Notes under the pieces: generated by a model
Told to the model about the DNA's origin: nothing
Database searches by the model: none
The model's input: the letters and a program-made list of their open reading frames with translations, nothing else
In this document: positions 4,365-25,045 of the stretch, piece by piece
Layout: every line of letters begins with the position of its first letter
Numbering within the stretch: the stretch's first letter is position 1
Program-made: the position numbers and the translations under genes
DNA from: Bacillota bacterium
GTDB taxonomy: Bacteria; Bacillota; Limnochordia; DTU087; JAAYGB01
NCBI GenBank assembly: GCA_012727955.1
Contig: JAAYGB010000005.1
Location: forward strand, 41,800-105,799
DNA length: 64,000 nucleotides
Reading direction: 5' to 3'

Positions 4365-4384
4365 AGAAAATGCTTGTTGATGTA

Positions 4385-4415
4385 CAGGCTGCGCTTAGTG
4401 CGCAGCCTTTTTTTG
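4385..4415 (+). terminator. rho-independent terminator after atp operon
   Basis: stem aggctgcgc/gcgcagcct (4386-4394/4400-4408), loop ttagt, then T7 run. Confidence 0.8.
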
Positions 4416-4481
4416 TATAACGGGCCCTTGCCTGGCAATAATGGGGATGGAAGCGAAATTTTGCCAGAAGGGGGTAGGCCC

Positions 4482-5426
4482 ATGTGGTGGCAAAGGCAGC
4501 GATTCAGGGAGGATCAGCCAGACTACCCGCAGTGGGAGCTCATCGAGGAAGACTCTCTGGGGTTGGGGCGCCAGAGGCTGACGGTAGAATGGCAGCACTG
4601 GCGCAGCCGAGGGTACAGGCTTCTTGCTGGGTATTGTCGACGATTGCTTCTGGTCTGGATGTTCCTCTTCTTGCTTACCTACCAATTCTCTGTAGTTGAT
4701 GCCGGTTTGCTGGAGTACAATCCCATTGCTGTGGCTTTGGATGCCGCCAAGGTGCAGTCCGATGCCTACCAGCTGACCGTTTGGAGTACTCGCCATCTAC
4801 CGGGTCAGCAGCCTGACCGGGAATTGTTGAGCCAAGGTGCAATGCTGTTGGTCGAAAAGGCCAATTTCACTGCGGTCGGTGAGTCGAGATGCTATCCCGT
4901 GGAAGGAGCTTGGGTCTGCGAAGTTGGTGCAAAGAAAAAGCACCAGGAACTCACGGTAATTAGCCGTTGGGAACCGGCCACCGGTAAGGAACACAAAAAC
5001 CACCTGACGGTCCTTCAGGTTCGAGGTCTATCCAGGGAGGAGATGCAGGAAAACTCCCGCCGCTATACCCATCTGGTCTCGGCGCTAACGGGATCTTCCG
5101 CCCAATGTGCCGTGACAGCTGCCGGGATTGTCCCAGAGAGAGTTCTTTCGGAATTGATCGGGGAAATGCAAAGGACCTTGACCCGGCATCGTTTTTGGCC
5201 GGTGGAGCTCAGCGTGCCCACGGCCAATGTCTCGCCGGCCAAGGATGGTGTTTGTCTGTTGGTAGGAAGGGCTCGGGTGCCCAAAAACCGGGTGCTGACC
5301 TTTGAGATTGGTCGGGCAGGAACCGGCAGCCCTCCTCGGATTTGGGCCTCCGTCTATCCGGCAACAAAAATGCCGGAAAAAGTGGAGTCCCTTACATATG
5401 TGACCAGTAAGTGGACAGAATACTAG
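4482..5426 (+). CDS. hypothetical membrane-anchored protein in the position of Bacillus ywmB
   Basis: ORF 4374..5426 trimmed to the internal ATG at 4482 (GGGGG RBS upstream) because the 5' part overlaps the atp terminator; one hydrophobic segment (LLLVWMFLFLL); no recognisable catalytic motif; function unknown. Confidence 0.35.
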   Translation: MWWQRQRFREDQPDYPQWELIEEDSLGLGRQRLTVEWQHWRSRGYRLLAGYCRRLLLVWMFLFLLTYQFSVVDAGLLEYNPIAVALDAAKVQSDAYQLTVWSTRHLPGQQPDRELLSQGAMLLVEKANFTAVGESRCYPVEGAWVCEVGAKKKHQELTVISRWEPATGKEHKNHLTVLQVRGLSREEMQENSRRYTHLVSALTGSSAQCAVTAAGIVPERVLSELIGEMQRTLTRHRFWPVELSVPTANVSPAKDGVCLLVGRARVPKNRVLTFEIGRAGTGSPPRIWASVYPATKMPEKVESLTYVTSKWTEY

Positions 5427-5430
5427 GGAG

Positions 5431-6300
5431 GTGGTGAAAATGAATCAAAGGGATCAGGAAGAGAAGAAACTGCGACAGGAGCAAAAGCAAGGGGAAAAGC
5501 GGCAAGAAGTAGAGCAAACCAGCTGGCTAAATTCTATCATGAAGTCTGCCGCTGTTACCCTGGAAAGAGTGCAGAGAAGGACCAGGGCCTTTTTCTCTCA
5601 AGGGGCACGGAAGCGGCAGGTGGTTCAGTTCTTTGCCGTGGTGGCGGTGGCAATTCTAACGGGAGCCGCGCTTTGGCTGAACTCAACTAGGGTGCTGGAG
5701 CACTACAGCCAAGAGATGACCGCCAGCTTGGATGGGGGACAAGCATCGGTTACCTTTGAATCGGAAGACGGCTTCTCCACCGGTGGAGTGACCTTGGGCC
5801 TGAGTCCAGAAGAATTGGCTGCAGCGATACCTTCAGAGGCCTCTCCGCAGGTGGAGCCGGCGCTAGCCAGCCCTCCAGAAAGGATGTCCCCGGAAGCACT
5901 GGCGGCAATGAATCTGTCTAAACTGCAGTGGCCAGTGCAGGGGGAGGTCGTCACCGAATACGGCTGGTGGCGTCATCCGATGTACCATGATTGGCGGATG
6001 CATCCAGGGATCGCCATCGCTACTCCCGTTAACAACCCGGTGAAGGCCGCACTTCCAGGACGGGTTGAAGAAATCTATCATGACAATTATCTTGGAACCG
6101 TTGTGGTAATTGAACACGGTGGCAGTGTGCGGACAGTCTACGGCAATGTCCAAGACGTGCCTTCTCTTGGCAGTCCCGTTGCCCAGGGGCAGGTGATCGG
6201 AAAAACAGCCTCCAGGAGGGGTGATGGGCAGAGGGGGCAGCTGTATTTTGAGGTTCGACATAATGGCGATGCCCTAGACCCTCTGGCCTATTTACGGTAA
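5431..6300 (+). CDS. LytM/M23-domain protein with degenerate active-site motifs, SpoIIQ-like by position
   Basis: 289 aa; charged N-term then TM helix. C-terminal M23 fold ('HPGIAIATPVNNPVKAALPGRV...GTVVVIEHGGSVRTVYGNV...GQLYFEVRHNGDALDP'): the HxxxD Asp is replaced by Ala, and HxH is replaced by Q-L-Y. Lies directly upstream of spoIIID-mbl, as spoIIQ does in Clostridia. Confidence 0.6.
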   Translation: MVKMNQRDQEEKKLRQEQKQGEKRQEVEQTSWLNSIMKSAAVTLERVQRRTRAFFSQGARKRQVVQFFAVVAVAILTGAALWLNSTRVLEHYSQEMTASLDGGQASVTFESEDGFSTGGVTLGLSPEELAAAIPSEASPQVEPALASPPERMSPEALAAMNLSKLQWPVQGEVVTEYGWWRHPMYHDWRMHPGIAIATPVNNPVKAALPGRVEEIYHDNYLGTVVVIEHGGSVRTVYGNVQDVPSLGSPVAQGQVIGKTASRRGDGQRGQLYFEVRHNGDALDPLAYLR

Positions 6301-6338
6301 TTGCCCACAACTTATCTGAGAAAGGATATTGATTTGGT

Positions 6339-6370
6339 GGCAGTCTGCAGCTTTGGACTGCCCTTTTTTG
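6339..6370 (+). terminator. rho-independent terminator
   Basis: stem ggcagtc/gactgcc followed by cttttttg. Confidence 0.65.
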
Positions 6371-6472
6371 TGTTTAAAGCTTAATACATCACCGGTTTGC
6401 ACCGGTACGCCCCTGACATACTCTGCCCAAACCCGCATATATATGTCAATAAAAGTGCGAGGGGGTCAGGGG

Positions 6473-6751
6473 ATGAGGGACTACATCCGCAAACGGGTAC
6501 TGGACGTGAGCCAGTTTATTATAGATACCGATTCCACTATTCGCCACGCGGCCAAGGTGTTTGGTGTAAGCAAGAGTACTGTGCATAAGGATGTAACGGA
6601 GAGGTTGCCCAAGATTGATGAGGAGCTGGCAAAGCTGGTGAAGAAGGTGTTGGAGAAAAACAAGGCTGAACGCCATCTCCGGGGAGGGGAAGCCACTAAG
6701 CGAAAATACCGCAGCCAAAGGCGAAAGGCCTCACCGGCAGAACCGATATAA
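6473..6751 (+). CDS. spoIIID: stage III sporulation protein D (SpoIIID transcription regulator)
   Basis: ORF 6329..6751 trimmed to ATG 6473 (RBS gagggggtcagggg). 92 aa 'MRDYIRKRVLDV...AKVFGVSKSTVHKDVTERLPKIDEELAKLVKKVLEKNKAERHLRGGEATKRKY' aligns along its whole length with the B. subtilis SpoIIID HTH protein. Confidence 0.9.
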   Translation: MRDYIRKRVLDVSQFIIDTDSTIRHAAKVFGVSKSTVHKDVTERLPKIDEELAKLVKKVLEKNKAERHLRGGEATKRKYRSQRRKASPAEPI

Positions 6752-6874
6752 ATCACATTATGAGTGTCTTATTCCCATTCTGATGCAGGATCTCGGGGCA
6801 CCAACTGCGAACACTTGCTAGTACGCCAATAGTTACCAGAGGATGGCTATTTCAGAGGGGAGTAACGATACATC

Positions 6875-7885
6875 ATGCCAGATATTGGAATCGATCTTGG
6901 GACAGCGAATGTCTTAGTCTATGCACGGGGGAAAGGGATTGTCATTCAGGAACCTTCTGTGGTGGCCATGGACAGGGATAGCAATAAGATTCTGGCGGTG
7001 GGTGAAGAGGCCCGTCAGATGTTGGGGCGCACCCCGGGAAACATCCTTGTGATTCGTCCCGTAAAGAGCGGAGTTATCGCCAAATACGACGTAACAGAAA
7101 CCACATTGAAATATTTTATCCATAAGGTCTGTGGTAAACGACCACTGTTTCGCCCTCGGGTTGTAGTGTGCGTACCTTCCGGGATCACCACGGTAGAACA
7201 GCGGGCTGTTGTCGATGCCTGTACCCGGGCCGGGGCGAAAAAGGTTTTTCTCATTTCAGAGCCGATGGCAGCGGCCATCGGAGCTGGCCTACCCATCGAA
7301 ACGGCCAGTGGGAATATGGTCGTAGATATCGGTGGGGGAACCACCGACGTAGCAGTCATTTCCCTGGGTGGAATCGTAGTCAGTGAATCCCTACGCATCG
7401 GGGGCGATGATTTCGACGATGCTATCATTCGTTATGTTAAACGGGTGCACAACCTCGCAATCGGCCTGAGGACCGCGGAGTCAATCAAAATCGATTTGGC
7501 TCGGGCCCTGTCGGATTGGGAGCCGGCGACCATGTCTATTCGCGGCCGCGACTTGGTGTCGGGTTTGCCCAAGACCATCGACCTGTCCTCCGCAGAAGTG
7601 TATACTGCGATCAAAGAACATGTGATGGCAATAGCCTCGGTAATCAAGACGGTTCTAGAGACCACCCCACCGGAGTTGTCCGCGGATATTATCGAACAGG
7701 GAATTACCTTGACCGGTGGCGGAGCTTTGCTGCGGGGGATGGATCAACTGATTACCGCTGAGACAGGGATTAGGACCTTTGTAGCTGAGGATCCAACCAC
7801 CTGTGTCGGTATGGGAACGGGAATCGTCCTGGAATCCCTGGACAAGTGGGCACGCTCTCCCGTTCTCAGTTCCTACTCGGCGTGA
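6875..7885 (+). CDS. mreB: rod-shape-determining actin homologue MreB/Mbl
   Basis: 336 aa; 'IGIDLGTANVLVY', 'VVDIGGGTTDVAVIS' actin-fold phosphate motifs; sits after spoIIID, as Bacillus mbl does. Confidence 0.93.
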   Translation: MPDIGIDLGTANVLVYARGKGIVIQEPSVVAMDRDSNKILAVGEEARQMLGRTPGNILVIRPVKSGVIAKYDVTETTLKYFIHKVCGKRPLFRPRVVVCVPSGITTVEQRAVVDACTRAGAKKVFLISEPMAAAIGAGLPIETASGNMVVDIGGGTTDVAVISLGGIVVSESLRIGGDDFDDAIIRYVKRVHNLAIGLRTAESIKIDLARALSDWEPATMSIRGRDLVSGLPKTIDLSSAEVYTAIKEHVMAIASVIKTVLETTPPELSADIIEQGITLTGGGALLRGMDQLITAETGIRTFVAEDPTTCVGMGTGIVLESLDKWARSPVLSSYSA

Positions 7886-13705: not shown

Positions 13706-13740
13706 CGGGGTAGGTCTTACACCTGCCCCGGATTTTTTTG
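13706..13740 (+). terminator. rho-independent terminator
   Basis: stem cggggtagg/cctgccccg, loop tcttaca, then gatttttttg. Confidence 0.8.
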
Positions 13741-13830
13741 GCAAGGGTAAGTCAAATATTACCTGGACCTTGGGACGGCAGGATTACCCAGGGAAAACAA
13801 GAAATAAACAGCCAGACGGGAGTGTGGTGT

Positions 13831-15300
13831 ATGGGTAAATTTGGCGACAGATTTTTCCAGACCAGGGGAATACTATTTCTCTTATTGATCTACATAAGTA
13901 TAGGTGCAGTGGTGACTCTTGGTGTATGGGACCAGGTGGCGGCCAAGGAACCAGCCGCGGGTAACAAGGGAGCCCACTTGCAGTCGGTCAGCGTTGACAG
14001 TGACACTGATGGACTTGTGGTGCAGCTAGGTCTTGAAGGACCTCTGTCCTATCGGGTGTGGAGCACCCCTTCCCCGAGCAAGGTGATTATCGATCTCCAT
14101 AATACCGTGGTAGGAACTGGGGTACAGGGTTTTGCCCTTGACGATGTCTTGGCAAAAAGGGTGCGGATCACTCAATACCCCAACTACTCTCGGGTAGTAG
14201 TTGATCTTGCTCATTCCGTCCCCACACCGATCCATGAAGTTCAGGGCAATACGTTAATGGTATATATCAACAGAAACTACCGTCAGGGATATGAGACGTT
14301 AGTTGCTCCCGGGGTGCGATACGGGCAGTTCCGGCAGGGTGGTGAGGCTGGCCAGGTGCTTGTCAACTACTTGCGGGTCTCTCCCCGCTCTCGGGCTTCG
14401 ATTCGTCCGGTATTGGCTAAGGGGGGAGCCGGCGGCTTGGAGACGGTAGACTCCATGGCCAAGGCCCACGATGCCATTGCGGCAGTCAACGGGAATTTCT
14501 TTGCCGGCAATGGAAAACCCCTGGGATTCTTGATGATCGATGGTGAGATTGCCGGTTATCCGATATATAATCGCAGTGCCTTTGGCATCACGGCAACGGG
14601 ACAAGTGCTGATTGATCAAGTGGACGCCGTCGGCTATTTTCAATGGGCCGATAGGGAGCCGATCACCATTTCCGGCGTCAACCGGGTCCGGCGGACCGAT
14701 GATCTCATCCTTTATACTCCCGAGTATGGCAAAACCACAGGAACCAACCACTTTGGACTGGAAGTAGTGGTAGAGCAGGGTGTGGTCATTGCTTGTTCCG
14801 AGGAGGGAAATTCCCTGATTCCTCCCCAGGGGTTTGTACTTTCTGCCCATGGAAATAGCCGGGAGCTCCTCTCTGATATAGCAGTCGGTGATCCCGTTAC
14901 CGCCCATTGGGAACTGCGGCCCGATTGGATTGAGATGGGAGTAGTGCACGCCGTCGGTGCCGGCCCGAGGTTGGTGAAGGATGGGAAAATCGCGATCAAT
15001 GGAGTGGAAGAGCGGTTTCAGTCCGATGTGCTTTATGGTCGGGCACCGAGAACCGGTTTCGGAGTAACTGAGACCGGGGAGATAGTACTCGTGACGGTTA
15101 ATGGCCGCAGAGGTGCCGTTAGCGTTGGCATGACGTTGCGGGAACTGGCGGAGTTGATGATTACCCTGGGAGCAGTGGATGCCATCAACCTCGATGGTGG
15201 AGGTAGTGCTACGTTAGTTGTCAGAGATAGGGTTCTCAACCTTCCTTCCGATGGACGGGAACGGCCGGTAGGGAGTGCTATCTTGGTATTGGCGGACTAA
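13831..15300 (+). CDS. AMIN-domain protein fused to a phosphodiester glycosidase (NAGPA-like) domain
   Basis: ORF trimmed to ATG 13831 (TM/signal 'ILFLLLIYISIGAVVTLGVW'). N-terminal AMIN-like beta domain ('VSVDSDTDGLVVQLGLEGPLSYRVWSTPSPSKVIIDLHNTVV...RVVVDL'). C-terminal 'AVNGNFF', 'GAGPRLVKDGK', 'GVTETGEIVLVTVNGRR...AINLDGGGSATLVV' is typical of the phosphodiester glycosidase (DUF2233) family. Confidence 0.65.
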   Translation: MGKFGDRFFQTRGILFLLLIYISIGAVVTLGVWDQVAAKEPAAGNKGAHLQSVSVDSDTDGLVVQLGLEGPLSYRVWSTPSPSKVIIDLHNTVVGTGVQGFALDDVLAKRVRITQYPNYSRVVVDLAHSVPTPIHEVQGNTLMVYINRNYRQGYETLVAPGVRYGQFRQGGEAGQVLVNYLRVSPRSRASIRPVLAKGGAGGLETVDSMAKAHDAIAAVNGNFFAGNGKPLGFLMIDGEIAGYPIYNRSAFGITATGQVLIDQVDAVGYFQWADREPITISGVNRVRRTDDLILYTPEYGKTTGTNHFGLEVVVEQGVVIACSEEGNSLIPPQGFVLSAHGNSRELLSDIAVGDPVTAHWELRPDWIEMGVVHAVGAGPRLVKDGKIAINGVEERFQSDVLYGRAPRTGFGVTETGEIVLVTVNGRRGAVSVGMTLRELAELMITLGAVDAINLDGGGSATLVVRDRVLNLPSDGRERPVGSAILVLAD

Positions 15301-15313
15301 GGGAGGTTACGGA

Positions 15314-17326
15314 TTGGAGAGGGCACGGGACTTTAGTCGACATAGGGTTTTTGTTTTCTCATTGATGCTCTGGCTCGGATTGATGGGAGCTGTGCTTTGG
15401 CAGTGGCCCGTGGCGGCAGCCGCCGTCGAAACCCAGAGTAGTGATGCCCGGTTCATGTCTGTTGGGCAACTAAGGGAAGGAATGAAGGGGGTTGCCAAGA
15501 CCGTTTTCCACGGAACCACCATTGAAGAATTTGATGTTGAGATCTTAAGCGTTCTTCCCGATGCGGGGGCTGGTGGCGACCTGATCCTCGGGAAGGTCAG
15601 CGATGAAGTAATTGAGCGAGCCGGTGGGGTTGTGCAGGGAATGAGCGGCAGTCCCGTATATGTTGATGGCAAACTGATTGGTGCCATCAGCGGTGCCTAC
15701 CGCAATAACCCCGATGGTTTGGCAGCCATTACCCCCATTGAAGATATGCTGCAGGTGCTGGACAGAGTCCAAGGCACGGAACCAATAGCGCTCAATCCCA
15801 GTACCATGGTAGCAGCGAAGACACCGCTGATGGCTTCGGGACTAAGTTCTCGGGCCCTCAATGTATTGGCGGAACAGACGGGTTCCTGGGGGATGTATCC
15901 CGTTGAAGGCGGGCAGATGGGTTCCGGCAAGGCAATTAATACCGAGGATGTGGAAATCGAGCCTGGAGCAGCCCTGGGATTACAGTGGGTTCGGGGTGAC
16001 GTCAATCTCACCTCCATTGGAACGGTGACCTATGTGGACGGCGATAATTTTGTCGCCTTTGGTCACACCGCGGGTAACTGGGGCAAGATCAATGCCTTCG
16101 CTTCCACTGCCTATGTCAATGCCATTGTCCGCAGTCGGGATATCGGATTTAAGCTGGCCTCTCCTATTGAGACGGTGGGCACCGTCTCCGAAGATCGGTG
16201 GGCAGGAATTGCCGGTACCATCGGGCAACTGCCTCCTGTAGTCCACTATGATGTTCGGGTGCGGGATAAAGACAGCGGCACTGAGTCCAACTATCAGTTT
16301 GATGTGGTTCGCAGTGAGCAGTTTACCAGCCAGTTCAGTTCCTCGGCCTTGCTGGGAGTCCTTGACCGGGGAATCGACCGCTTGGGTCCCGGCACCTCAA
16401 GGGTAGTGTATCGAGTCTATACCGATGATCTCGAGCCCATCATCCGTGATAATGTTTATTACAGCACCATTGATATTTCTGCAGTCTCTTTGAGTGAGCT
16501 GCTGGAAGTAACGCAGTTGCTACTGCGCAATGAGTTTAAGGCCGTCGATATCGAAAGGGTGGAACTGGAGGTGGACATTGACTCCAGTCGCCAGACGGCC
16601 ACGATTGAAAAGGCAAGGCCCGCTAGAACCACCGTGGCTCCCGGAGAGTCTGTCAACGTTGAAGTGGTGATTCGGCCCTACCGAGGAGAGCGGGAAACTA
16701 AGATCATCCGTTTAGATATTCCCGAGAATGCTCAACCCAGCTCTGTGCATGTTTCCGTTCGAGGCGGTGGCTACGGATACTTGTTTACCGATTACAGCCC
16801 CTATCACGATGGGGCTGATGCAGGGGGAGAGAATAAGTCTGAGGATCCGTCGCCCCCCAGCAATGCCGAGAGCCTCGATAAGTTGATCAAGGAAGTATCC
16901 CAACGGCCTCGCCATCAGGATCTGGTCGTTGAGTTTGTTCCCTATGTGAACTCCAAGCATGGGACAGAAGACGACGAGGCGGTTCCCGTTTTTGGTGAGC
17001 CGGAGATCCAGTTTGAGGATTTTGAGGATCCATCCGGTGCAAGTGGTCCCTTTGGCACCAGGGGTCTGGTACCGGTTACTGAAGGACGGGAGTTTGGTGA
17101 GAAGACAGCAGAGGATTCGTCACCTGCCTCCCCTTGGAATGGTCAATATGCTGAGCCTGTGAGAAGCACCCTAGCTACTCAATACTACCTGGAGGGTGAG
17201 ACTGGATTTGAATTGACCATCGTGGCTCCCCCTCAGCCCAGGGACCAAGAAGGTGCTGTCAAGTCCGATGCTCCACTGGAGACCGTCGAGGCTGAACCAA
17301 TAGAAGTAGAAGTAGAGGCTGAGTAA
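15314..17326 (+). CDS. SpoIVB-like S55 serine peptidase with apparently circularly permuted catalytic domain plus large C-terminal extension and acidic tail
   Basis: TTG 15314 after an AAGGGAGG RBS and a signal peptide. Residues ~60-150 ('[14 protein letters not shown]...[32 protein letters not shown]...IEDML') match the C-terminal Ser-box lobe of B. subtilis SpoIVB. Residues ~240-320 ('[20 protein letters not shown]...[17 protein letters not shown]') match the N-terminal His-box lobe. ~350 further aa of unknown fold end in a D/E-rich tail. Confidence 0.7.
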   Translation: [670 protein letters not shown]

Positions 17327-17502: not shown

Positions 17503-20500
17503 ATGAGACAGCAACTGGCGCCCCACCGGCTGTTGACCATCGTGGCAGCACTGGTGGTTCTCTACGGATTGGCCTTGATTAGCTTTCCTTACCTAGTGAC
17601 TCAGTTGCCGGTACAGAGTTGGATTCGGGACCGAGTCCTAGCGCGGTGGGAAGAAAGACTGGGTATTACTATGGACTTTGCCGAGATGAGACCGGCGGGA
17701 CTTGGCCAGCTGGAAATTACCGATGTAACTTTGACGGCCGATGGCGCAGCTTTGGCCCAAGTAGAGAAGATTGTGATCAAGGCAGACCTGGCCGGTCTGC
17801 TGTTGGCTTTGTGGCAACCCACGGAGGTAATTAGTTGGGTCAAGCTGATCTCACCAGAAGTGACGGTGGATCGAGCCGACTTGAGTGCCTGGCAGGTGAT
17901 GATGAATGAGTTTGTCTCCTCTGAGGCTCAGACGATGTTGACGGGAAACTTACCCTTTGCAGTGACCGTCAGTCACGGCACCTTGGTGATCAAGCAGGGA
18001 CAAGGGATCGAGGCTAGGCTCCATGGGATTAATGGTCGGGCTCACCGCCGCATAGTAATCTACGATGGAGCATTGGCGGTAGCGGCCTTGCCCGAGGAGA
18101 TCACCGGATTGGCCGGGACCGTGGCTTGGGGCCCAGGGGGTATTTCCGCTAATTTGCAGGCCAAGTTCCTGGGGGACTCCATCACCGTTGTGGGAAGGAC
18201 CAGGGGTATGAAGGGGCCCCGCCTGGAAGTTGATACCTTAACCGTTACCGGTCTGGGAGGGAAAGTCCAGGGAGTGGGACATGTTCAGTTACCGAGCCTA
18301 AGGACCAAGGGACCCCAATCCCTTGACTATCACTTCGCCCTGGTTTTCGATAATTTGCAGTTAAGTCCTTGGCTGGGGAAGCTGGTTACTGCATCAATCA
18401 CAGAAGCCCCCCCGATCCCCCTACCGACCTTTGAGGCCCTTTCCGGCACCCTGCTCATTGGCGGGGGTGGCGGTGCTCCGGAATTCATCGGAGATCTGGC
18501 TGTTACAGATCTTGCCTGGCAGGAGGGGAAGTTTGAGCACCTTCGAACGGGAATGGTCCTGACCTCTCAAGGCCTGCACATCGATTATTTCAGTTTGCAG
18601 GGTCCCAGCGGCAGCGTTGATCTCCAGGGCCGGATAGGATTGGATAGGGAACTGGATTTCATCGTCACCGTTGATGGGCTCGAAGTTGGAGATCTGCAGC
18701 TGGTTCCAGAGCTAGCGGGAGAGGTGGCTGCCGAAGCTCGGTTATCGGGGCAGTATCCGCTAGTAGAAGTGGAAGGGGTGGTCGTTGGTGATGGAATCTC
18801 CTATCGAGACCACCACCTGGGTGGGGTGGAAACGGGCTTTCGCTGGCGCGACGGGAACTTGGTGCTCAGCGATGGCAAGCTCCGCCTGGCTCAGGAACAA
18901 CTGGACTTTTCTGGACAGGTTACCCTGGCAGATCAAGGGGCCTTGGATCTTCGGATTACCGCCGACCAACTGGACCTCGGAGAGCTCGCCACCCTTGTCG
19001 GTCAAGGGATACCCGTCACCGGGCAACTGGCAGGGGGCCTTGAGATAAAGGGATGGATAGACAACTTGAGGGGAGAGGGCACCCTAACGGTTACTGGCCT
19101 TGGGGCCTATGGGGTGACCGCGGATCAGGTGACCACCGAGTTTCATTGGCAGGACCAGACGATGGTTCTGGATAGTTTGGTGGCTCAGGTGGGTGGAGGT
19201 AGGGTATCGGCCGATGGAGTCATCGACCAGACCCAGGGATGGAACCTGTTGGTTCAGGCCCAGGGCGTTGACCTGGAGTCCCTCAACCTAACTTTACGGC
19301 AGAGGCAAGGGCTCCAGGGACTCCTGCAGGGGCAGGGGAAAGTGACCGGCGACTGGACTCAGCCGCGGATTAAAGCAGAGGTCACCGTCATTGACGGGGC
19401 TGTCGGTGGATATCGCCTGGATGAGCTCAATGGGCAGGTGGCCTTCGCCCAGGGAATCATCCACCTCCCCTCCGTCAGTTTGCGGCTGGGAGCCGATGTG
19501 TACCGGCTATCGGGGGAAGTAGATTTGAGCCAGAATCCAAGGGATCCCGCCCTTGACTTGCAGTTGGATCTAGCCCAGGCTTCCCTGGAGGGTTTGACCT
19601 TGCTGTTTCCAGAGGCTAAAGAGCTGGCTGTGGCAGGACCCGTTGCTGGTTATGCCCAGGTGTGGGGGAGAATTTCCGATCCTAGCGGCGAGGCCCAGGT
19701 GATGGTGCGCGATGGCAGGATGCTGGATCAGCCCCTTGCCGCCACCGTTGATCTGGCGCTGCAGGATGGCATTCTTACCCTCAAGGAATCCCAGGTTCAC
19801 TGGGGCGAGGCGACCCTAACGGGACAGGGACAGATCGCGAATTGGCAAGAGCTGGCACTGAAGTTTCAGGCTCGGCGGATCCCTTTGGAGCAATTGCCTG
19901 GGAGTCTGTCGGTACCCGCTCATCTGTCCGGGCAAATCGATGGGGACTTGATGATAACGGGAACTCGAACTAGACCGAAGGTTAGGGGGACTATCTCCTT
20001 GGCCGAGGCACAGTACCAGGGGCATCGGTTTACCCAAGGCTTCGGTGAGTTCTTCCTCGATGGGGCTCGGATGCATTTAGACAGGCTCACCCTGCAGTCG
20101 GCCCACCATACCTTGACCGCTAGGGGACAGGTGGATCTGGCCTTACCGATCTTAACCAGCCTTGGTATCGCCGAGGTCCAACCCCGTTCTCGGGCCCATG
20201 TTGATCTGAGGTTGACCGTTGCGCCGAATCAGCAGTCGCCGAAATCCGTCAATGTCATGGGTGCAGTTTTCCAGCAGCCTCGCCTAATGAGTGATGTGGT
20301 GGTTCAGGGGACATGGCAGGATCCGAAACTCGAGGGACAGGTGGAGTTTTTCAGCGCTGAAGTAGTCCATGGGAGTTTGCCGGAGCCAGCTAGGGGTGTC
20401 AAGCTGACAGTTGAACTGGCTGGGCACGAGGTTATCCTTCGCCGACTGGACTCTCAGATGGGTCGAGGCAAAGTCTTTGGATCCGGTGTTGTCTTCCTCG

Positions 20501-21429
20501 ATGGCCTTGTACCTGGGAAGTATGACCTAACCTTCCAGGTGGACGGAGTCAGCTTGGCCGGTGATTTTGGCTCTGGTCGATTCTTTGGCGAGTTAGGATT
20601 GGCGGGAACCTCCGCTGTTCCCGTGGTTCGGGGCAGCCTGCGGGTTGACGATGGCAGGGTAAACTTGAAACTTCCCCAGTCCCAAGGGGGATTGCCCAGG
20701 AACGTACACCTGGACATTCACCTGAGGGCAAAGGAGGATGTATTGGTCCAAGGCTTTGGGCTGGACATGGCGGTGCACGGAGATACCCGTCTCCAGGGAA
20801 CTTTGCAGGAGCCACAGCTGGATGGTACGGTAAAGCTAAGTCGAGGCAGCTTCAACTATCTTGGTACCCGATTCCAGCTCACCTCCGGTAGTTTGGTCTT
20901 TGCTCCCATCAATGGCTACATCCCTTGGGTAGATTTGCGGGCGGAGACCAATCTCACTGCCGGAGAAGTAATTCTCACCATGAGGGGCAGGGCTGATCAA
21001 CTGGACATCACCCTCCGATCGGATCAGGATCTATCCCAACAGGAGTTGATGGCCCAACTAGGGTGGCCTGAGAAAATGGGACAGGCCTTTGATGGTAGGC
21101 TGTGGGCCAATCTCGATTCCGAGGTGATGAGGCTGGTGGAGGGTGAATTTGTCAATCAGTTCCTGGGGGATTTGACCCGTTCCTTCAGGACCGCCCTGAG
21201 TCTGGACAAACTGGAGATTGAGCCGAGCTTCATCGATAAGAATCTTCGCTTTGAGGTGGGCAAGTATGTGGACGATCGGGTGTTTGTCACCTACTCCCGA
21301 AAGGTCTCTGATTCCTCGGAGCAGGAGATTGGAGTGGAGTACCGTCTTAACCCCAATGTGGTTTTCGCCACCACTTTGGACGGTAACGGTGAGAAGTGGT
21401 TTGGATTTCGGGGCCAGTTCCGCTTCTAA
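17503..21429 (+). CDS. tamB: translocation and assembly module protein TamB (AsmA-like, DUF490 C-terminus)
   Basis: 1308 aa; N-terminal membrane anchor; long repetitive beta-rich 'GxV/GxL' body; C-terminal 'FEVGKYVDDRVFVTYSRKV...GVEYRLNPNVVFATT' DUF490-type domain; directly upstream of bamA, as in diderm Firmicute OM clusters. Confidence 0.8.
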   Translation: MRQQLAPHRLLTIVAALVVLYGLALISFPYLVTQLPVQSWIRDRVLARWEERLGITMDFAEMRPAGLGQLEITDVTLTADGAALAQVEKIVIKADLAGLLLALWQPTEVISWVKLISPEVTVDRADLSAWQVMMNEFVSSEAQTMLTGNLPFAVTVSHGTLVIKQGQGIEARLHGINGRAHRRIVIYDGALAVAALPEEITGLAGTVAWGPGGISANLQAKFLGDSITVVGRTRGMKGPRLEVDTLTVTGLGGKVQGVGHVQLPSLRTKGPQSLDYHFALVFDNLQLSPWLGKLVTASITEAPPIPLPTFEALSGTLLIGGGGGAPEFIGDLAVTDLAWQEGKFEHLRTGMVLTSQGLHIDYFSLQGPSGSVDLQGRIGLDRELDFIVTVDGLEVGDLQLVPELAGEVAAEARLSGQYPLVEVEGVVVGDGISYRDHHLGGVETGFRWRDGNLVLSDGKLRLAQEQLDFSGQVTLADQGALDLRITADQLDLGELATLVGQGIPVTGQLAGGLEIKGWIDNLRGEGTLTVTGLGAYGVTADQVTTEFHWQDQTMVLDSLVAQVGGGRVSADGVIDQTQGWNLLVQAQGVDLESLNLTLRQRQGLQGLLQGQGKVTGDWTQPRIKAEVTVIDGAVGGYRLDELNGQVAFAQGIIHLPSVSLRLGADVYRLSGEVDLSQNPRDPALDLQLDLAQASLEGLTLLFPEAKELAVAGPVAGYAQVWGRISDPSGEAQVMVRDGRMLDQPLAATVDLALQDGILTLKESQVHWGEATLTGQGQIANWQELALKFQARRIPLEQLPGSLSVPAHLSGQIDGDLMITGTRTRPKVRGTISLAEAQYQGHRFTQGFGEFFLDGARMHLDRLTLQSAHHTLTARGQVDLALPILTSLGIAEVQPRSRAHVDLRLTVAPNQQSPKSVNVMGAVFQQPRLMSDVVVQGTWQDPKLEGQVEFFSAEVVHGSLPEPARGVKLTVELAGHEVILRRLDSQMGRGKVFGSGVVFLDGLVPGKYDLTFQVDGVSLAGDFGSGRFFGELGLAGTSAVPVVRGSLRVDDGRVNLKLPQSQGGLPRNVHLDIHLRAKEDVLVQGFGLDMAVHGDTRLQGTLQEPQLDGTVKLSRGSFNYLGTRFQLTSGSLVFAPINGYIPWVDLRAETNLTAGEVILTMRGRADQLDITLRSDQDLSQQELMAQLGWPEKMGQAFDGRLWANLDSEVMRLVEGEFVNQFLGDLTRSFRTALSLDKLEIEPSFIDKNLRFEVGKYVDDRVFVTYSRKVSDSSEQEIGVEYRLNPNVVFATTLDGNGEKWFGFRGQFRF

Positions 21430-21586
21430 TTTTCAGTGGAGATCTCTGCCAGTACTGTCAAGATGTATGGTTATTTACACCAACTACATGACAACAGACA
21501 GCAGGGAAGTGCCTCTAGGAGATCGAATTGAGTCTTAAGGAAGCTGAGCTTGGACAACTTTGCTAACGGGGAAGCAGGGAGGTTTT

Positions 21587-23269
21587 ATGGTGACGATTAC
21601 AGTACGACCGGCGTTGCTTGTCGGAACTTTGCTCTCATTATTACTTGTTTTTTCTCTTACCTTATCTGGTACTGTGTATGCTGCGGAACCCATCGTCAAG
21701 GCCATTGTCTTTCAAGGCAACCAGCAGCTGGATGATGTCGAGTTGATGCAGTATATTACCGCAACGAAGCTGGGCGAACCCCTGGATGAAGAGGCGGTGG
21801 AAGCCGACCGCAAGGCGTTGTTTGACTCCGGGTATTTTTGGAGTGTGCAGCCCGCGGAGGTCAGCTTTGTTCCCGGCGGTGTGCACTTGATTTTCAAAGT
21901 GGTGGAAAACCCCGTGGTGGAACGGGTAACCATCGAGACCACTGCTTTGCCGGTGGAAGAATTCCTTGGTGCCCTGTACACTCAGCCCGGTAAAGTTCTC
22001 AACGTCAATGGCCTGCGGGATGACCTGAATCAAGTGATTCCTGAGAAGGCGATGACCGATTATGGCATTCCCGTTCGAGTGAGTGATGCCAGTGTCTCCC
22101 CGGAGACGGGAGAGGTAAATATCGTTCTCGAAGCCCAGATTGTGTCGGAAATCAAGATCTCTGGTAACGAGAAGACCAATGACCATGTCATTACCAGGGA
22201 ATTGGGGATTAAGCCCGGCGATGTTCTCAATCTCAACACCATCAACCAGGGTCTGCATCGGGTTCTGATGCTAGGATACTTTGATGAAATCAGTCGAGAG
22301 ATCTTGCCCGGTGAAAAGGACGATGAGGTGATTCTGCATATTCGAGTGGCGGAACGCAAGACCGCGGTGTTCACCGGTGGTGTGGGCTACAGCTCCCATG
22401 AAGGGCTGATCGGATATGTAGATGTTGCCGATGAAAACTTCCGAGGAAATGGCCAACGGGTCAACTTCCGCTGGGAGTTCGGGAAGAATCGCACTTCCTA
22501 CGATATTGGTTTCTATGAGCCCTACCTGGGCGAAGATGGGAGAAACTCCATCGGTGCCAATATCTATCGAACCACACGAGAGTACAAGCACCAAAATCCA
22601 GAGATAGGAATCTATGAAGCCAAGTCTACCGGGGCCAGTGTCACCTTGGGCCGTCGGTTGACGCCAAACACTCGGGGATACTTGGTGCCCAAGATGGAGA
22701 AAGTATCGGACTGGGAGGGCGAATACACCACTAGGAGTTTGCGTCTGACCACGGTAACCGATACCTCGAACCACCCCTTCTTCCCGACTACCGGTAACAA
22801 GCTGCGCTTGTCCGCAGAATTTGCCGGTGGCCTATTGGGAGGAGACAGTCAGTTTAGTGACTACCAGGCGGATTACAGCAAGTACTTCCCTCTGGGACGG
22901 CGAAACCAGACCCTGGCCTTCCGGCTCTCCGGTGGTGTCTTGACTGGTGACAATATTCCAGACCCAGAACGTTACCGTGTGGGTGGGTCTGAGTCCCTGC
23001 GAGGATACAAATATGGGGAGTTTGAGGGAGACCGGAAGCTGGTGCTGAACAGTGAGTACCGGTTCCAGATTAAGGACGCCTTCCATGGTGTACTCTTTGC
23101 CGACATCGGTAATGCTTGGGATTCAGGAGAATCCATCAGTATGAAGGATCTGAACGTAGGATATGGTGCCGGATTGCGCATTGACACCCCCTTAGGGGTA
23201 CTGCGATTTGACTATGGTTTTGGCGATGACGGCGGCAACTTCTACTTCAGCATCGGTCAAATGTTCTAG
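21587..23269 (+). CDS. bamA: outer membrane protein assembly factor BamA (Omp85)
   Basis: ATG 21587 after a GGGAGG RBS; signal peptide; POTRA-like repeats; C-terminal 16-strand-barrel signatures ('RGYKYGEFEGDRK', 'DIGNAWD') ending in ...GQMF. Confidence 0.88.
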   Translation: MVTITVRPALLVGTLLSLLLVFSLTLSGTVYAAEPIVKAIVFQGNQQLDDVELMQYITATKLGEPLDEEAVEADRKALFDSGYFWSVQPAEVSFVPGGVHLIFKVVENPVVERVTIETTALPVEEFLGALYTQPGKVLNVNGLRDDLNQVIPEKAMTDYGIPVRVSDASVSPETGEVNIVLEAQIVSEIKISGNEKTNDHVITRELGIKPGDVLNLNTINQGLHRVLMLGYFDEISREILPGEKDDEVILHIRVAERKTAVFTGGVGYSSHEGLIGYVDVADENFRGNGQRVNFRWEFGKNRTSYDIGFYEPYLGEDGRNSIGANIYRTTREYKHQNPEIGIYEAKSTGASVTLGRRLTPNTRGYLVPKMEKVSDWEGEYTTRSLRLTTVTDTSNHPFFPTTGNKLRLSAEFAGGLLGGDSQFSDYQADYSKYFPLGRRNQTLAFRLSGGVLTGDNIPDPERYRVGGSESLRGYKYGEFEGDRKLVLNSEYRFQIKDAFHGVLFADIGNAWDSGESISMKDLNVGYGAGLRIDTPLGVLRFDYGFGDDGGNFYFSIGQMF

Positions 23270-23445: not shown

Positions 23446-23895
23446 GTGATGCAGCGTACCTGGTTGTACGGGGTGGCACTGGTGGTAGCAGCTCTGGGAC
23501 TGCTCGCGGCGATCACGATGCTGTCCGGTGATGTGGTTGGGGTGGTAGATTCCCAACGGATAATGGAGGAATTTGTCGTTGCCAGGGTACAGAAATCCTT
23601 GGAGGAGGAAGCCGAGAGGCTGCAGTCGGAACTGGATCAAGCCATTGCCGAGACCGCCGAGCTACCCGTGGAGGAGCGAGTCCCTAAGGTGGATGAACTA
23701 AAGGAAGAGTATCAACGGCGCCTGGACGAGTACAAGACCCAGTTGGTGGAACCAAAGATTCAGCAGGTTAAGACTGTCATTAAAGAGGTGGCAAGCGCTC
23801 GCCGGGTGGATATGGTCATCGACAATGCCAGTCAGTTGGTTTTGTACGGCGGAGTTGATCTGACCGATGAGGTACTGGAAGAGCTTGGTAAGTGA
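23446..23895 (+). CDS. skp: OmpH/Skp-like periplasmic chaperone
   Basis: 149 aa; signal/TM then coiled coil; C-term 'ARRVDMVIDNASQLVLYGGVDLTDEVLEEL' is the typical Skp/OmpH ending; follows bamA. Confidence 0.75.
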   Translation: MMQRTWLYGVALVVAALGLLAAITMLSGDVVGVVDSQRIMEEFVVARVQKSLEEEAERLQSELDQAIAETAELPVEERVPKVDELKEEYQRRLDEYKTQLVEPKIQQVKTVIKEVASARRVDMVIDNASQLVLYGGVDLTDEVLEELGK

Positions 23896-23929
23896 AGTGC
23901 CAGGGCCGGATAGGGGGGGAGTGAGGAAG

Positions 23930-25045
23930 ATGCCAAGAACTTATCGGAGCTTTGCCGTGATTTCATTCCTGATTTTGGGCGCTGCCCTCACAGTCGCAGC
24001 AGTGATCTGTATCGAACTCGGGATCGGGGCAGCTGCTTCCCTGGGATATGTGGATATGGAGCGGGCGATGACGCAACACCCCCTCTATTCAGAGCTGGTG
24101 GAGCTGCAGAAGCAGATCCAAGAGGAAGAACAGCGTTGGGATCGCTATGTCGGGCAGGTTCTGGCGACCTCAGACCCCCAGGCCTATCAGGAGTGGGTGG
24201 CGACCCTGTATGGCTCTGGAGTATCGACCCTGCAGGAGGAGAATCATCGGCAGATTGCCCAGCGCCAAGAGAAGATTGAAGCCCAGTTGGCGCAAGAGCT
24301 AGAGAGGCTGCAGCAAGAGGCGCTAACCAGCTGGGAGCAGACCCAGGAGAATCATCGGCAGCTCTTTGCCCAGAAGCAAGAGGAGTTAGCCACTGCCATC
24401 GAAGCAGAGCTTAACGCTGAGGCAGAGCTGGTCCGGAAGTCTTACCAGCGGGAGATCCTCAACCTCCAGGTGGAACTGCTGCTGCAAAACAGCCTAACCT
24501 CCCAGGAGCGATTGGAAAAGACAGCGCAGCTGGAAGAACTTCAGGATGAGATGCAGGATAGACTCCAGGAATTGAGCGGGGCCTACACCGCTCTGTTGGA
24601 GGATAGGATCGCGGAGCTGGCCCAGCAGATGGAAAGGGATCTCAAGTCCCTGGAAGACGAGGCCAACAACAGGCTAGAGGCACAGATTAAAGAGGCTGAA
24701 GCTCTGGCGCAACAGGAGCTAGATCGCTACCTGCGTGCTAAGGAGGAAAGCATGGTCGCTGCATTGACCACCCGCGAGGAAACTTTGGCGCGGATGCAAG
24801 GCCCCTTACTGGACACCCTGATCCAGCAGGGCCTGGTGTCGGAGCAGAGTCGGCAGATGCAAAGCTTCATCGAAGGGGAATTGCAGACCAAGGCCCAGCG
24901 TTTGTTAGAGACAATCCACGGAGACATTCAGGCCGCTGCAACCCAAGTTGCCCAGAGGCAAAGGCTGCAGGTGGTTTTGACCGACAGTGAGTTTTCCGAG
25001 GACCTGATTGACGTAACTGACAGTGTGATTGATGCAATGCGATAA
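23930..25045 (+). CDS. extended OmpH/Skp-like coiled-coil protein
   Basis: 371 aa from ATG 23930; N-terminal TM; ~300 aa Q/E/L-rich coiled coil; OmpH-like C-terminus 'LQVVLTDSEFSEDLIDVTDSVIDAM'. Confidence 0.55.
   Translation: MPRTYRSFAVISFLILGAALTVAAVICIELGIGAAASLGYVDMERAMTQHPLYSELVELQKQIQEEEQRWDRYVGQVLATSDPQAYQEWVATLYGSGVSTLQEENHRQIAQRQEKIEAQLAQELERLQQEALTSWEQTQENHRQLFAQKQEELATAIEAELNAEAELVRKSYQREILNLQVELLLQNSLTSQERLEKTAQLEELQDEMQDRLQELSGAYTALLEDRIAELAQQMERDLKSLEDEANNRLEAQIKEAEALAQQELDRYLRAKEESMVAALTTREETLARMQGPLLDTLIQQGLVSEQSRQMQSFIEGELQTKAQRLLETIHGDIQAAATQVAQRQRLQVVLTDSEFSEDLIDVTDSVIDAMR

Follow-up and report, generated by a model that had tools for sequence, protein, structure and literature searches.

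The window analysed here comprises 64,000 nucleotides of contig JAAYGB010000005.1 from a Bacillota bacterium (assembly GCA_012727955.1) and contains a locus for outer-membrane biogenesis from a diderm member of the Bacillota. Between the genes for an AMIN/NAGPA protein and for TamB, and upstream of BamA, it carries a coding sequence (15314..17326, + strand; TTG start, 670 amino acids plus stop) for a relative of SpoIVB (MEROPS S55; PF05580; TIGR02860; PDB 9lnf), the protease of the sigma-K checkpoint in endospore-forming bacteria. In the structure of SpoIVB, barrel 1 holds His236 and barrel 2 holds Ser378 (PMC12502668). In the protein described here the lobe with the Ser box comes before the lobe with the His box, and profile comparisons as well as a structural model support a circular permutation relative to SpoIVB.

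The listing of open reading frames (ORFs) shows a single, uninterrupted frame of 683 amino acids from an upstream GTG (15275..17326, + strand). Residues are numbered according to this ORF throughout; numbers counted from the TTG at 15314 are lower by 13. The TTG, already taken as the start in a preliminary description of this DNA, is the likelier start codon, because the sequence shows a strong Shine-Dalgarno site, AAGGGAGG, at 15299..15306 (+ strand), 7 nt upstream of it, while the GTG overlaps the preceding gene, whose end is at 15300. From the TTG, residues 14-50 (15314..15424, + strand) form a predicted Sec-type signal peptide or signal anchor with a basic n-region, a hydrophobic helix of ~20 residues and an A-A-A motif, and the AlphaFold2 model places a signal helix at residues 16-42. 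The signal peptide may be a cleavable one. A 99%-identical database protein (P0001) was called as 615 amino acids; it begins ~55 residues 3' of the TTG, has no signal peptide, and its start is probably mis-called.

Barrel 1 is formed by residues 60-166 (15452..15772, + strand) and comprises the Ser/oxyanion lobe together with a helix found at the C-terminus of SpoIVB. Pfam Peptidase_S55 (PF05580) matches residues 56-148 with an E value of 1.2e-16 and 61.8 bits (the gathering cutoff is 25); the match is limited to positions 105-200 of the 210 positions of the profile. Likewise, TIGR02860 matches residues 70-160 only, corresponding to profile positions 305-397 of 402, with a score of 57.8 bits, far under the equivalog cutoff of 305 bits. 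BLASTP against B. subtilis SpoIVB, whose sequence was checked residue by residue against 9lnf, gave 39% identity over 82 amino acids (E=9e-14), and 9lnf is the sole relative among the PDB sequences (E=1e-9). For profile comparisons with HHalign, 90 members of the family were set against 141 mutually diverse canonical SpoIVB representatives. Family residues 60-166 align with SpoIVB 314-419 over 105 columns (E=2e-21), including the helix that ends SpoIVB, and barrel 1 (50-175) matches the S55 C-lobe with P=1.4e-25 versus P=0.053 for the S55 N-lobe.

Within this lobe, the Ser box G122-M-S124-G-S-P127 (15638..15655, + strand) holds the predicted nucleophile S124, equivalent to S378 of SpoIVB. The box is identical to the invariant G376-P381 box of SpoIVB and is kept in ten lineages from nine phyla; G, M, S, G and P do not vary among the 90 family members, and position 126 is Ser in 85 and Thr in 5. 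In the model, barrel 1 is built from strands 71-77, 83-98, 101-108, 127-130, 133-140 and 149-154, followed by the helix 155-165.

The His lobe, barrel 2, follows at residues 228-322 (15956..16240, + strand). Its similarity to the S55 N-lobe, as judged by profile comparison, is real but weak. Against the profile of the whole S55 domain, family residues 244-322 align with SpoIVB 214-305 in one continuous alignment of 78 columns (P=0.0011). When the lobes were compared separately, barrel 2 (176-350) matched the S55 N-lobe over 77 columns with P=2.5e-4 and the C-lobe over 7 columns with P=0.025; a control domain (346-500) gave P=0.17 and P=0.62, respectively. A run with -norealign against the N-lobe profile alone reached a score of 29.1 (P=2.3e-4), above all 48 column shuffles (median 13.0, maximum 24.8) and above a reversed control (18.0). 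A narrow, Bacillus-only SpoIVB profile had split the His lobe into two weak matches (E=0.026 and 0.18), a result that is superseded by that of the diverse S55 profile. A Pfam scan of the isolated downstream segment yielded a single match at E<=10, to the S55 His box (residues 238-268 on profile positions 8-38, E=0.076); a second family member shows the same sub-threshold match (E=0.12). A phmmer search of residues 201-375 against the PDB sequences found no relevant match.

The His box G249-T250-x-T252...G263-H264 (16019..16066, + strand) contains the predicted general base H264, equivalent to SpoIVB H236, and all 90 family members have G249, T250, T252, G263 and H264. The motifs of the two families are in register: G219-T220-x-T222...G235-H236...G285-x4-N290-x3-G294-x2-G297 in SpoIVB corresponds to G249-T250-x-T252...G263-H264...G302-x4-D307-x3-G311-x2-G314 here, with matching spacing. 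Barrel 2 alone (222-330) is predicted as a six-stranded barrel with a mean predicted local distance difference test (pLDDT) of 91.7. Its top Foldseek neighbours in the PDB are mostly PA-clan proteases (V8, Esp, SplA/B/F, the 3C proteases of norovirus and foot-and-mouth disease virus, factor D); as no target coordinates were given for the isolated barrel, this search does not distinguish an N-barrel from a C-barrel.

With its Ser box (122-127) ahead of its His box (249-264), the protein thus reverses the SpoIVB order, in which H236 precedes S378. The two HHalign alignments tile SpoIVB 214-305 and 314-419, almost the whole protease domain, and the breakpoint at SpoIVB ~306-313 falls in the inter-barrel loop, which is the signature expected of a circular permutation. 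Canonical S55 proteins behave differently: each of the 150 representatives listed matches the profile as one colinear stretch, nearly all over the whole domain. For our protein no colinear full-length S55 alignment could be obtained by Pfam, TIGR02860 or HHalign.

A two-barrel arrangement is also predicted by the AlphaFold2 model computed from the alignment of 90 sequences, with pLDDT 83.3, a predicted template modelling score (pTM) of 0.79, and residues 60-500 mostly >90. It shows two six-stranded barrels with strands within 71-154 and 233-316. H264 directly follows the third strand of barrel 2 and D307 lies in the turn before the sixth, so that in the model these residues appear topologically equivalent to His57 and Asp102 of chymotrypsin. 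Foldseek of the model against the PDB returned SpoIVB 9lnf, HtrA, DegS, DegQ, MucD, Rv3671c and 3C proteases, and barrel 1 superposes on 9lnf, DegS, DegQ and 3C proteases at 3-5 Å. The alignments with a root mean square deviation of 3-5 Å span only ~114-125 columns, that is one barrel, while all longer ones have 12-26 Å. This is the outcome expected of a sequential aligner on a permuted two-barrel fold.

The reciprocal HHalign matrix, the tiling, the motif register and the two-barrel model with its one-barrel Foldseek alignments support an S55-type Ser lobe preceding the His lobe. The preliminary description had proposed this swap from the letters alone, aligning residues ~60-150 with the Ser lobe of SpoIVB and ~240-320 with its His lobe. 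The former alignment is strongly borne out by Pfam and BLASTP, the latter weakly but specifically by HHalign (P 2.5e-4 to 1e-3), and the reversed order holds, with no colinear S55 alignment found. It had further expected two non-colinear partial matches to the S55 profile; the Ser half was found at E=1.2e-16, and the His half only below threshold, at E=0.076, on the isolated segment.

In the alignment of the 90 family sequences G122, M123, S124, G125, P127, G249, T250, T252, G263, H264, D307 and R308 are invariant. S124 and H264 align with SpoIVB S378 and H236 when the family alignments are compared with HHalign. D307, located with R308 in the beta5-beta6 turn of barrel 2 (16193..16198, + strand; invariant in 90/90), is the candidate third residue of the triad. 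An alternative is D242 (15998-16000, + strand), which is Asp in 88/90 members. From their positions in the alignment and the model, D307, or else D242, would take the role of the third triad residue. The catalytic residues then follow one another as Ser124 ... (Asp242) His264 ... Asp307, which departs from the canonical PA-clan order of His, Asp, Ser. To our knowledge, all recognised PA-clan proteases have their catalytic residues in the order His-Asp-Ser. Conservation of this kind is typical of active enzymes, while pseudo-enzymes usually lose such residues, and the invariant catalytic motifs argue for a predicted active enzyme.

The comparison also bears on SpoIVB itself. D363 was historically regarded as the third catalytic residue of SpoIVB, and T393 has been proposed recently; in the crystal structure D363 is ~24 Å away from His236 (PMC12502668). 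Neither D363 nor T393 has a conserved counterpart in the new family. D307 aligns with SpoIVB N290 (Asn in 141/142) and D242 with D213 (Asp in 128/142). Because both of these positions are kept across the families while D363 and T393 are not, the alignments suggest that N290 or D213, rather than D363 or T393, partners His236 in SpoIVB and other S55 peptidases.

The two barrels are joined by a linker of ~60 amino acids (residues 167-227; 15773..15955, + strand), which joins the C-terminal end of the canonical fold to its N-terminal start. It has no S55 profile match; in the model it holds a small beta-alpha-beta element at 183-211, and P184 and G189 are nearly invariant. Downstream of barrel 2, alpha/beta and immunoglobulin (Ig)-like beta-sandwich domains extend over residues 323-500 (16241..16774, + strand); they are conserved family-wide and mostly modelled with pLDDT >90, and residues 427-498 give weak, sub-threshold Pfam matches to DUF7363 and HYDIN/VesB-like Ig domains. 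They are followed by a disordered acidic insertion (residues 501-628; 16775..17158, + strand) with 27 D+E versus 9 K+R and pLDDT mostly 41-63, except at 534-554, where a helix and a strand form a short ordered stretch (pLDDT >84). The insertion is lineage-specific and missing from most homologs (580-620 amino acids). The last part (17159..17323, + strand) comprises beta-strands 629-650, which return to the folded body with pLDDT ~97 and have the family consensus K..L.T.YVI.G.....L.I, and an acidic tail with 10 D+E in the last 28 residues. The preliminary description had foreseen much of this architecture: the extra C-terminal region, put at ~350 amino acids with an acidic tail, measures ~360 amino acids, and the absence of a PDZ domain agrees with a Pfam scan in which no PDZ domain matched at E<=1 and no other Pfam domain beyond S55 was significant. 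The linker was likewise recognised, with a length put at ~70 residues; it measures about 60 (residues ~167-227).

The family is large and widely distributed. More than 833 homologs were found at E<=1e-3, mostly of 580-700 amino acids, the closest named ones from metagenome-assembled genomes (MAGs) of Limnochordales and Firmicutes, and all but one of the 120 homologs listed have a partial PF05580 match. In a scan of one genome per species, at least 596 genomes encode the family, and the matches always span both lobes. The family occurs in Limnochordia and Halanaerobiales, in Negativicutes, with isolates of Veillonella parvula, Megasphaera, Propionispora and Colibacter, and also in Armatimonadota, Atribacterota, Planctomycetota (Kuenenia, Brocadiales), Acidobacteriota, Gemmatimonadota, Latescibacterota, Synergistota, Melainabacteria, Riflebacteria and Poribacteria, in about ten phyla overall. 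Ten lineages compared from nine phyla have the same lobe order and conserve S124, D242, H264, K293, G302 and D307-R308; G249-T250 is altered only in the protein from Melainabacteria (GTA). A strict motif regular expression finds all three motifs in that order in 6/10 of these lineages.

Orthologues with the same permutation, which the preliminary description had suggested looking for, therefore exist in at least 596 species genomes, with the reversed order in every homolog examined. A permuted protease is indeed unusual for the PA clan, as had been stated, but it is not rare. Its assignment to a sporulation signalling family has to be revised: the protein belongs to a pan-diderm family found in an outer-membrane biogenesis locus and including non-sporulating taxa. 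Two family members are of unusual length. A melainabacterial MAG (Obscuribacterales, locus L074, 5713-10566) has a 1617-residue ORF that contains the S55-family module, and a Latescibacterota locus (L064, 5176-7821) encodes an 881-residue version with the Ser box at residue 368, ~280 residues further in than in the other members; the simple ORF caller may have over-extended both starts.

In the window, the gene order is AMIN/NAGPA - S55 - TamB - BamA - OmpH/Skp-like - YjbH-like small outer-membrane protein - LpxD. The preceding gene (13738..15300, + strand) encodes a protein with AMIN and NAGPA (phosphodiester glycosidase, formerly DUF2233) domains according to Pfam, the ortholog of Vpar_0519 of V. 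parvula. The same neighbour is found in Pelorhabdus, in a JGI metagenome contig and in V. parvula, and NAGPA without AMIN in a MAG labelled Betaproteobacteria (L003). TamB, an AsmA-like lipid-transport bridge protein (17503..21429, + strand; Pfam TamB 1.4e-41), and BamA, an Omp85 protein with POTRA domains (21560..23269, + strand; Pfam Omp85 1.5e-51, POTRA 1.9e-29), lie downstream. The OmpH/Skp-like protein (23867-25045, + strand) has 392 amino acids, of which only 250-391 match OmpH, below the gathering score. In the equivalent operon of Acetonema longum the newly named SonA and SonB adjoin BamA and Skp.

Much of this order recurs elsewhere. Negativicutes, other Bacillota MAGs and V. parvula share the arrangement SpoIIID - Mbl - FlgFG - FlgA/H/I - AMIN/NAGPA - small ORF - S55 - (MlaEFD - TolC) - TamB - BamA. 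The S55 gene is followed by MlaEFD-TolC-TamB in Negativicutes, by TamB in Armatimonadota and by MlaE in Synergistota and Riflebacteria; in Halanaerobiales a 1460-residue protein is encoded next, for which TamB is probable by size only. The small ORF of the Negativicutes, ~95-105 amino acids with a weak biotin-lipoyl/BSH-like match, has no counterpart between AMIN/NAGPA and S55 in the window. At four loci (L059, 7718-9958; L070, 7709-9952; L071, 7694-9796; L064, 7914-9983), from Planctomycetota (Kuenenia), Acidobacteriota, Gemmatimonadota and Latescibacterota, the S55 gene has a protein of ~690-750 amino acids on its 3' side, with beta-propeller (Reg_prop, SGL-like) repeats and, in Kuenenia, additional Ig-like domains, which may be an alternative conserved partner.

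Upstream of AMIN/NAGPA, the window contains genes for ATP synthase alpha, gamma and beta, an M23 peptidase, MreB/Mbl, FlgF/G, FlgA, FlgH and FlgI. At 4374-6300 and 6875-7885 (+ strand), ahead of the genes for the flagellar rod and rings, the order is ATP synthase alpha/gamma/beta, a 350-residue ORF without a Pfam match, M23 peptidase and MreB/Mbl. The gene order over 4374-7885 resembles the spoIID - spoIIQ - spoIIID - mbl - flhOP region of Bacillus, and homologous loci have SpoIIID before Mbl, which may point to a sporulation-capable diderm Bacillota as the host. Over the whole window (1-64000), nearly all long ORFs are on the + strand and the GC skew is positive throughout, with a monotonically rising cumulative skew, consistent with a single leading-strand replichore segment.

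The protein is a member of an already annotated, uncharacterised family that includes Vpar_0521 of V. parvula and F7NM31 of A. longum, both described as 'peptidase S55 domain-containing protein' of the diderm-Firmicute outer-membrane cluster. Vpar_0521 was reported to have an N-terminal 'SpoIVB' domain, to be found in the outer-membrane fraction and to be conserved in diderm Firmicutes with unknown function, and was called an important target (Poppleton et al. 2017, PMC5491611); its DUF2233 (= NAGPA) neighbour Vpar_0519 was also found in the outer-membrane fraction (PMC5491611). F7NM31 was one of only two proteins that co-purified with BamA after cross-linking (PMC13018214), and it is very probably an ortholog, because the order of the A. 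longum accessions (F7NM22 SonA, M23 BamA, M24 SonB, M27 TolC, M28 MlaD ... M31) matches the synteny. In the V. parvula locus (L035, MCC755), the homolog has 660 amino acids and 33% identity (tblastn E=3e-76 over residues 13-499), with the same three motifs in order. The synteny is as in the window, Mbl - AMIN/NAGPA - small ORF - S55 - MlaEFD - TolC - TamB, except that here no Mla-TolC genes lie between S55 and TamB. The low-complexity C-terminal region differs as well, being acidic here and Lys/Glu-rich in Veillonella, where it is called DUF1090. What is new is the recognition of a complete lobe-swapped chymotrypsin-fold protease, where published work saw only an N-terminal half-domain. In the literature covered, which is incomplete, we found no mention of the second lobe, of the permutation or of any naturally permuted PA-clan protease, and neither work on a 'SpoIVB-like' protein nor a follow-up on Vpar_0521.

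We favour, with a probability of about three in four, the interpretation that the gene encodes an exported, lobe-swapped PA-clan serine endopeptidase of ~70 kDa, which among known proteases is most closely related to SpoIVB. The Sec signal would direct the protein to the periplasm. Barrel 1 would provide the nucleophile S124 and the oxyanion hole (GMSGSP), and barrel 2 the general base H264 (FGH) and probably D307 (or D242), with the active site expected at the barrel interface, between S124, H264 and the invariant Asp. The ~60-residue linker would bridge the former termini of SpoIVB, and the new termini would lie at the former inter-barrel loop. The alpha/beta and Ig-like domains, together with the returning strands 629-649, probably bind a partner or substrate. 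Based on the gene neighbourhood, the localisation in the outer-membrane fraction and the co-purification with BamA, the protein would most likely process components of envelope or outer-membrane assembly, or their clients, or control their quality, near BamA, TamB and Mla. Such a role, which we propose with lower confidence than the architecture, would parallel that of SpoIVB acting in the forespore inter-membrane space. A farther-reaching version, in which the family is an ancient natural circular permutant spread across diderm phyla, serves as a dedicated proteolytic partner of BamA/TamB/Mla in Terrabacteria-type diderms and is a sister or derivative of SpoIVB, is more doubtful, and we regard it as tentative. 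It would tie a protease of sporulation signalling to an ancestral one of envelope biogenesis.

Several observations weigh against a lobe-swapped protease that works with BamA. The His-lobe statistics are modest (P 2.5e-4 to 1e-3, HHalign probability 20-45%), and the best shuffle reached 24.8, compared with the real score of 29.1, with only 48 shuffles run. Pairwise BLASTP of the His lobe with SpoIVB stayed below significance, pairing only 293-318 with 276-301 (E=0.3), and Pfam on the isolated downstream segments of 10 members gave two sub-threshold S55 His-box matches and no significant one. The Foldseek matches of barrel 2 to PA proteases are weak (E>=0.04, template modelling score 0.37-0.49), include a few PilZ-type barrels, and lack 9lnf among the top 50. 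A doubled-template test aligned across the junction (237 columns) with a score no higher than that of the Ser lobe alone. As to function, the tie to BamA rests on gene neighbourhood and one co-immunoprecipitation, in which F7NM31 was represented by 3 peptides and from which the authors concluded that they had detected no accessory proteins (PMC13018214). In Planctomycetota, Acidobacteriota, Gemmatimonadota and Latescibacterota the downstream gene encodes the beta-propeller/Ig protein, not TamB or Mla.

These weaknesses of the His lobe would also fit a half-protease with a recruited barrel, in which barrel 1 alone derives from an S55/chymotrypsin ancestor and the histidine of an unrelated barrel 2 is convergent, possibly still yielding a Ser/His protease. 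The faint single-sequence signal, the weak Foldseek matches with some PilZ and split barrels and no 9lnf among the top 50, and the unusually long beta4-beta5 hairpins of barrel 2 in the models point this way. Such an origin is nevertheless unlikely in view of the colinear alignment of 77-78 columns, which is specific to the S55 N-lobe (P=2.5e-4) as opposed to the C-lobe and beats all 48 shuffles. Moreover, nine invariant positions coincide at the same or nearly the same spacing, among them those of the entire G-x4-[N/D]-x3-G-x2-G hairpin, and the isolated segment has the S55 His box as its sole Pfam match at E<=10. An inactive scaffold, a pseudo-protease that binds partners such as BamA or TamB, is in keeping with the large extra domains, which suggest binding functions, and with the lack of conservation at the positions of SpoIVB T393 and D363. 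We consider it very improbable, since all 90 members, and lineages from 9 phyla, keep S124, H264, D307 and the full GMSGSP motif unchanged. A frameshift, misassembly or fusion that juxtaposes pieces of a colinear S55 gene, raised as a possible refutation in the preliminary description, can practically be dismissed: the gene is a single ORF, the same architecture and conserved order recur in >833 proteins and in no fewer than 596 species genomes, isolates of Veillonella parvula, Propionispora, Megasphaera and Colibacter among them, AlphaFold2 models the full-length protein with confidence, and a colinear S55 alignment was unobtainable.

If the protein is a lobe-swapped protease as proposed, the widespread barrel swap would be a textbook-level case of circular permutation, affecting an enzyme fold that ranks among the best studied, and would explain the 'half' S55 domain annotation in hundreds of genomes. 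We know of no accessory lipoproteins of the beta-barrel assembly machinery (BAM) in diderm Firmicutes; a predicted complete protease encoded beside TamB and BamA is hence a candidate component of outer-membrane assembly or quality control there. The finding bears on the question of which factors help BamA and TamB in diderm Firmicutes and other Terrabacteria, and the comparison across families yields a testable prediction on the disputed third catalytic residue of SpoIVB.

Among known envelope proteases, HtrA, DegP, DegS and DegQ (MEROPS S1C) have the chymotrypsin-type barrel in common with the protein, as well as the periplasmic location, predicted here, and a plausible role in envelope quality control. 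They have the canonical His-Asp-Ser order and a C-terminal PDZ domain, neither of which is present here; no sequence similarity is detectable beyond the fold, and the structural match covers half of the domain.

SpoIVB is the closer relative. It shares with the new family the GMSGSP Ser box and its surrounding lobe, the IGTxT...GH His box and the beta5-beta6 hairpin motif, and both are exported into an inter-membrane compartment, here according to the predicted signal. Both also seem to lack the classical Asp arrangement assumed earlier, with D363 not kept in the new family (PMC12502668). An assignment as SpoIVB ortholog was nonetheless rejected, given the TIGR02860 score of 57.8 versus 305 bits, the absence of a PDZ domain and of a colinear His-to-Ser order, and the non-sporulating hosts. 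In contrast to SpoIVB, whose full-length homologs carry a PDZ domain (PF17820, PF00595 or PF13180), the new family has reversed lobes, no PDZ domain and ~360 amino acids of extra C-terminal domains. It has D307 in place of the invariant N290 and does not conserve T393/H394 of SpoIVB. Finally, unlike the protease of the endospore formers, it is found in many non-sporulating phyla and in non-sporulating Veillonella.

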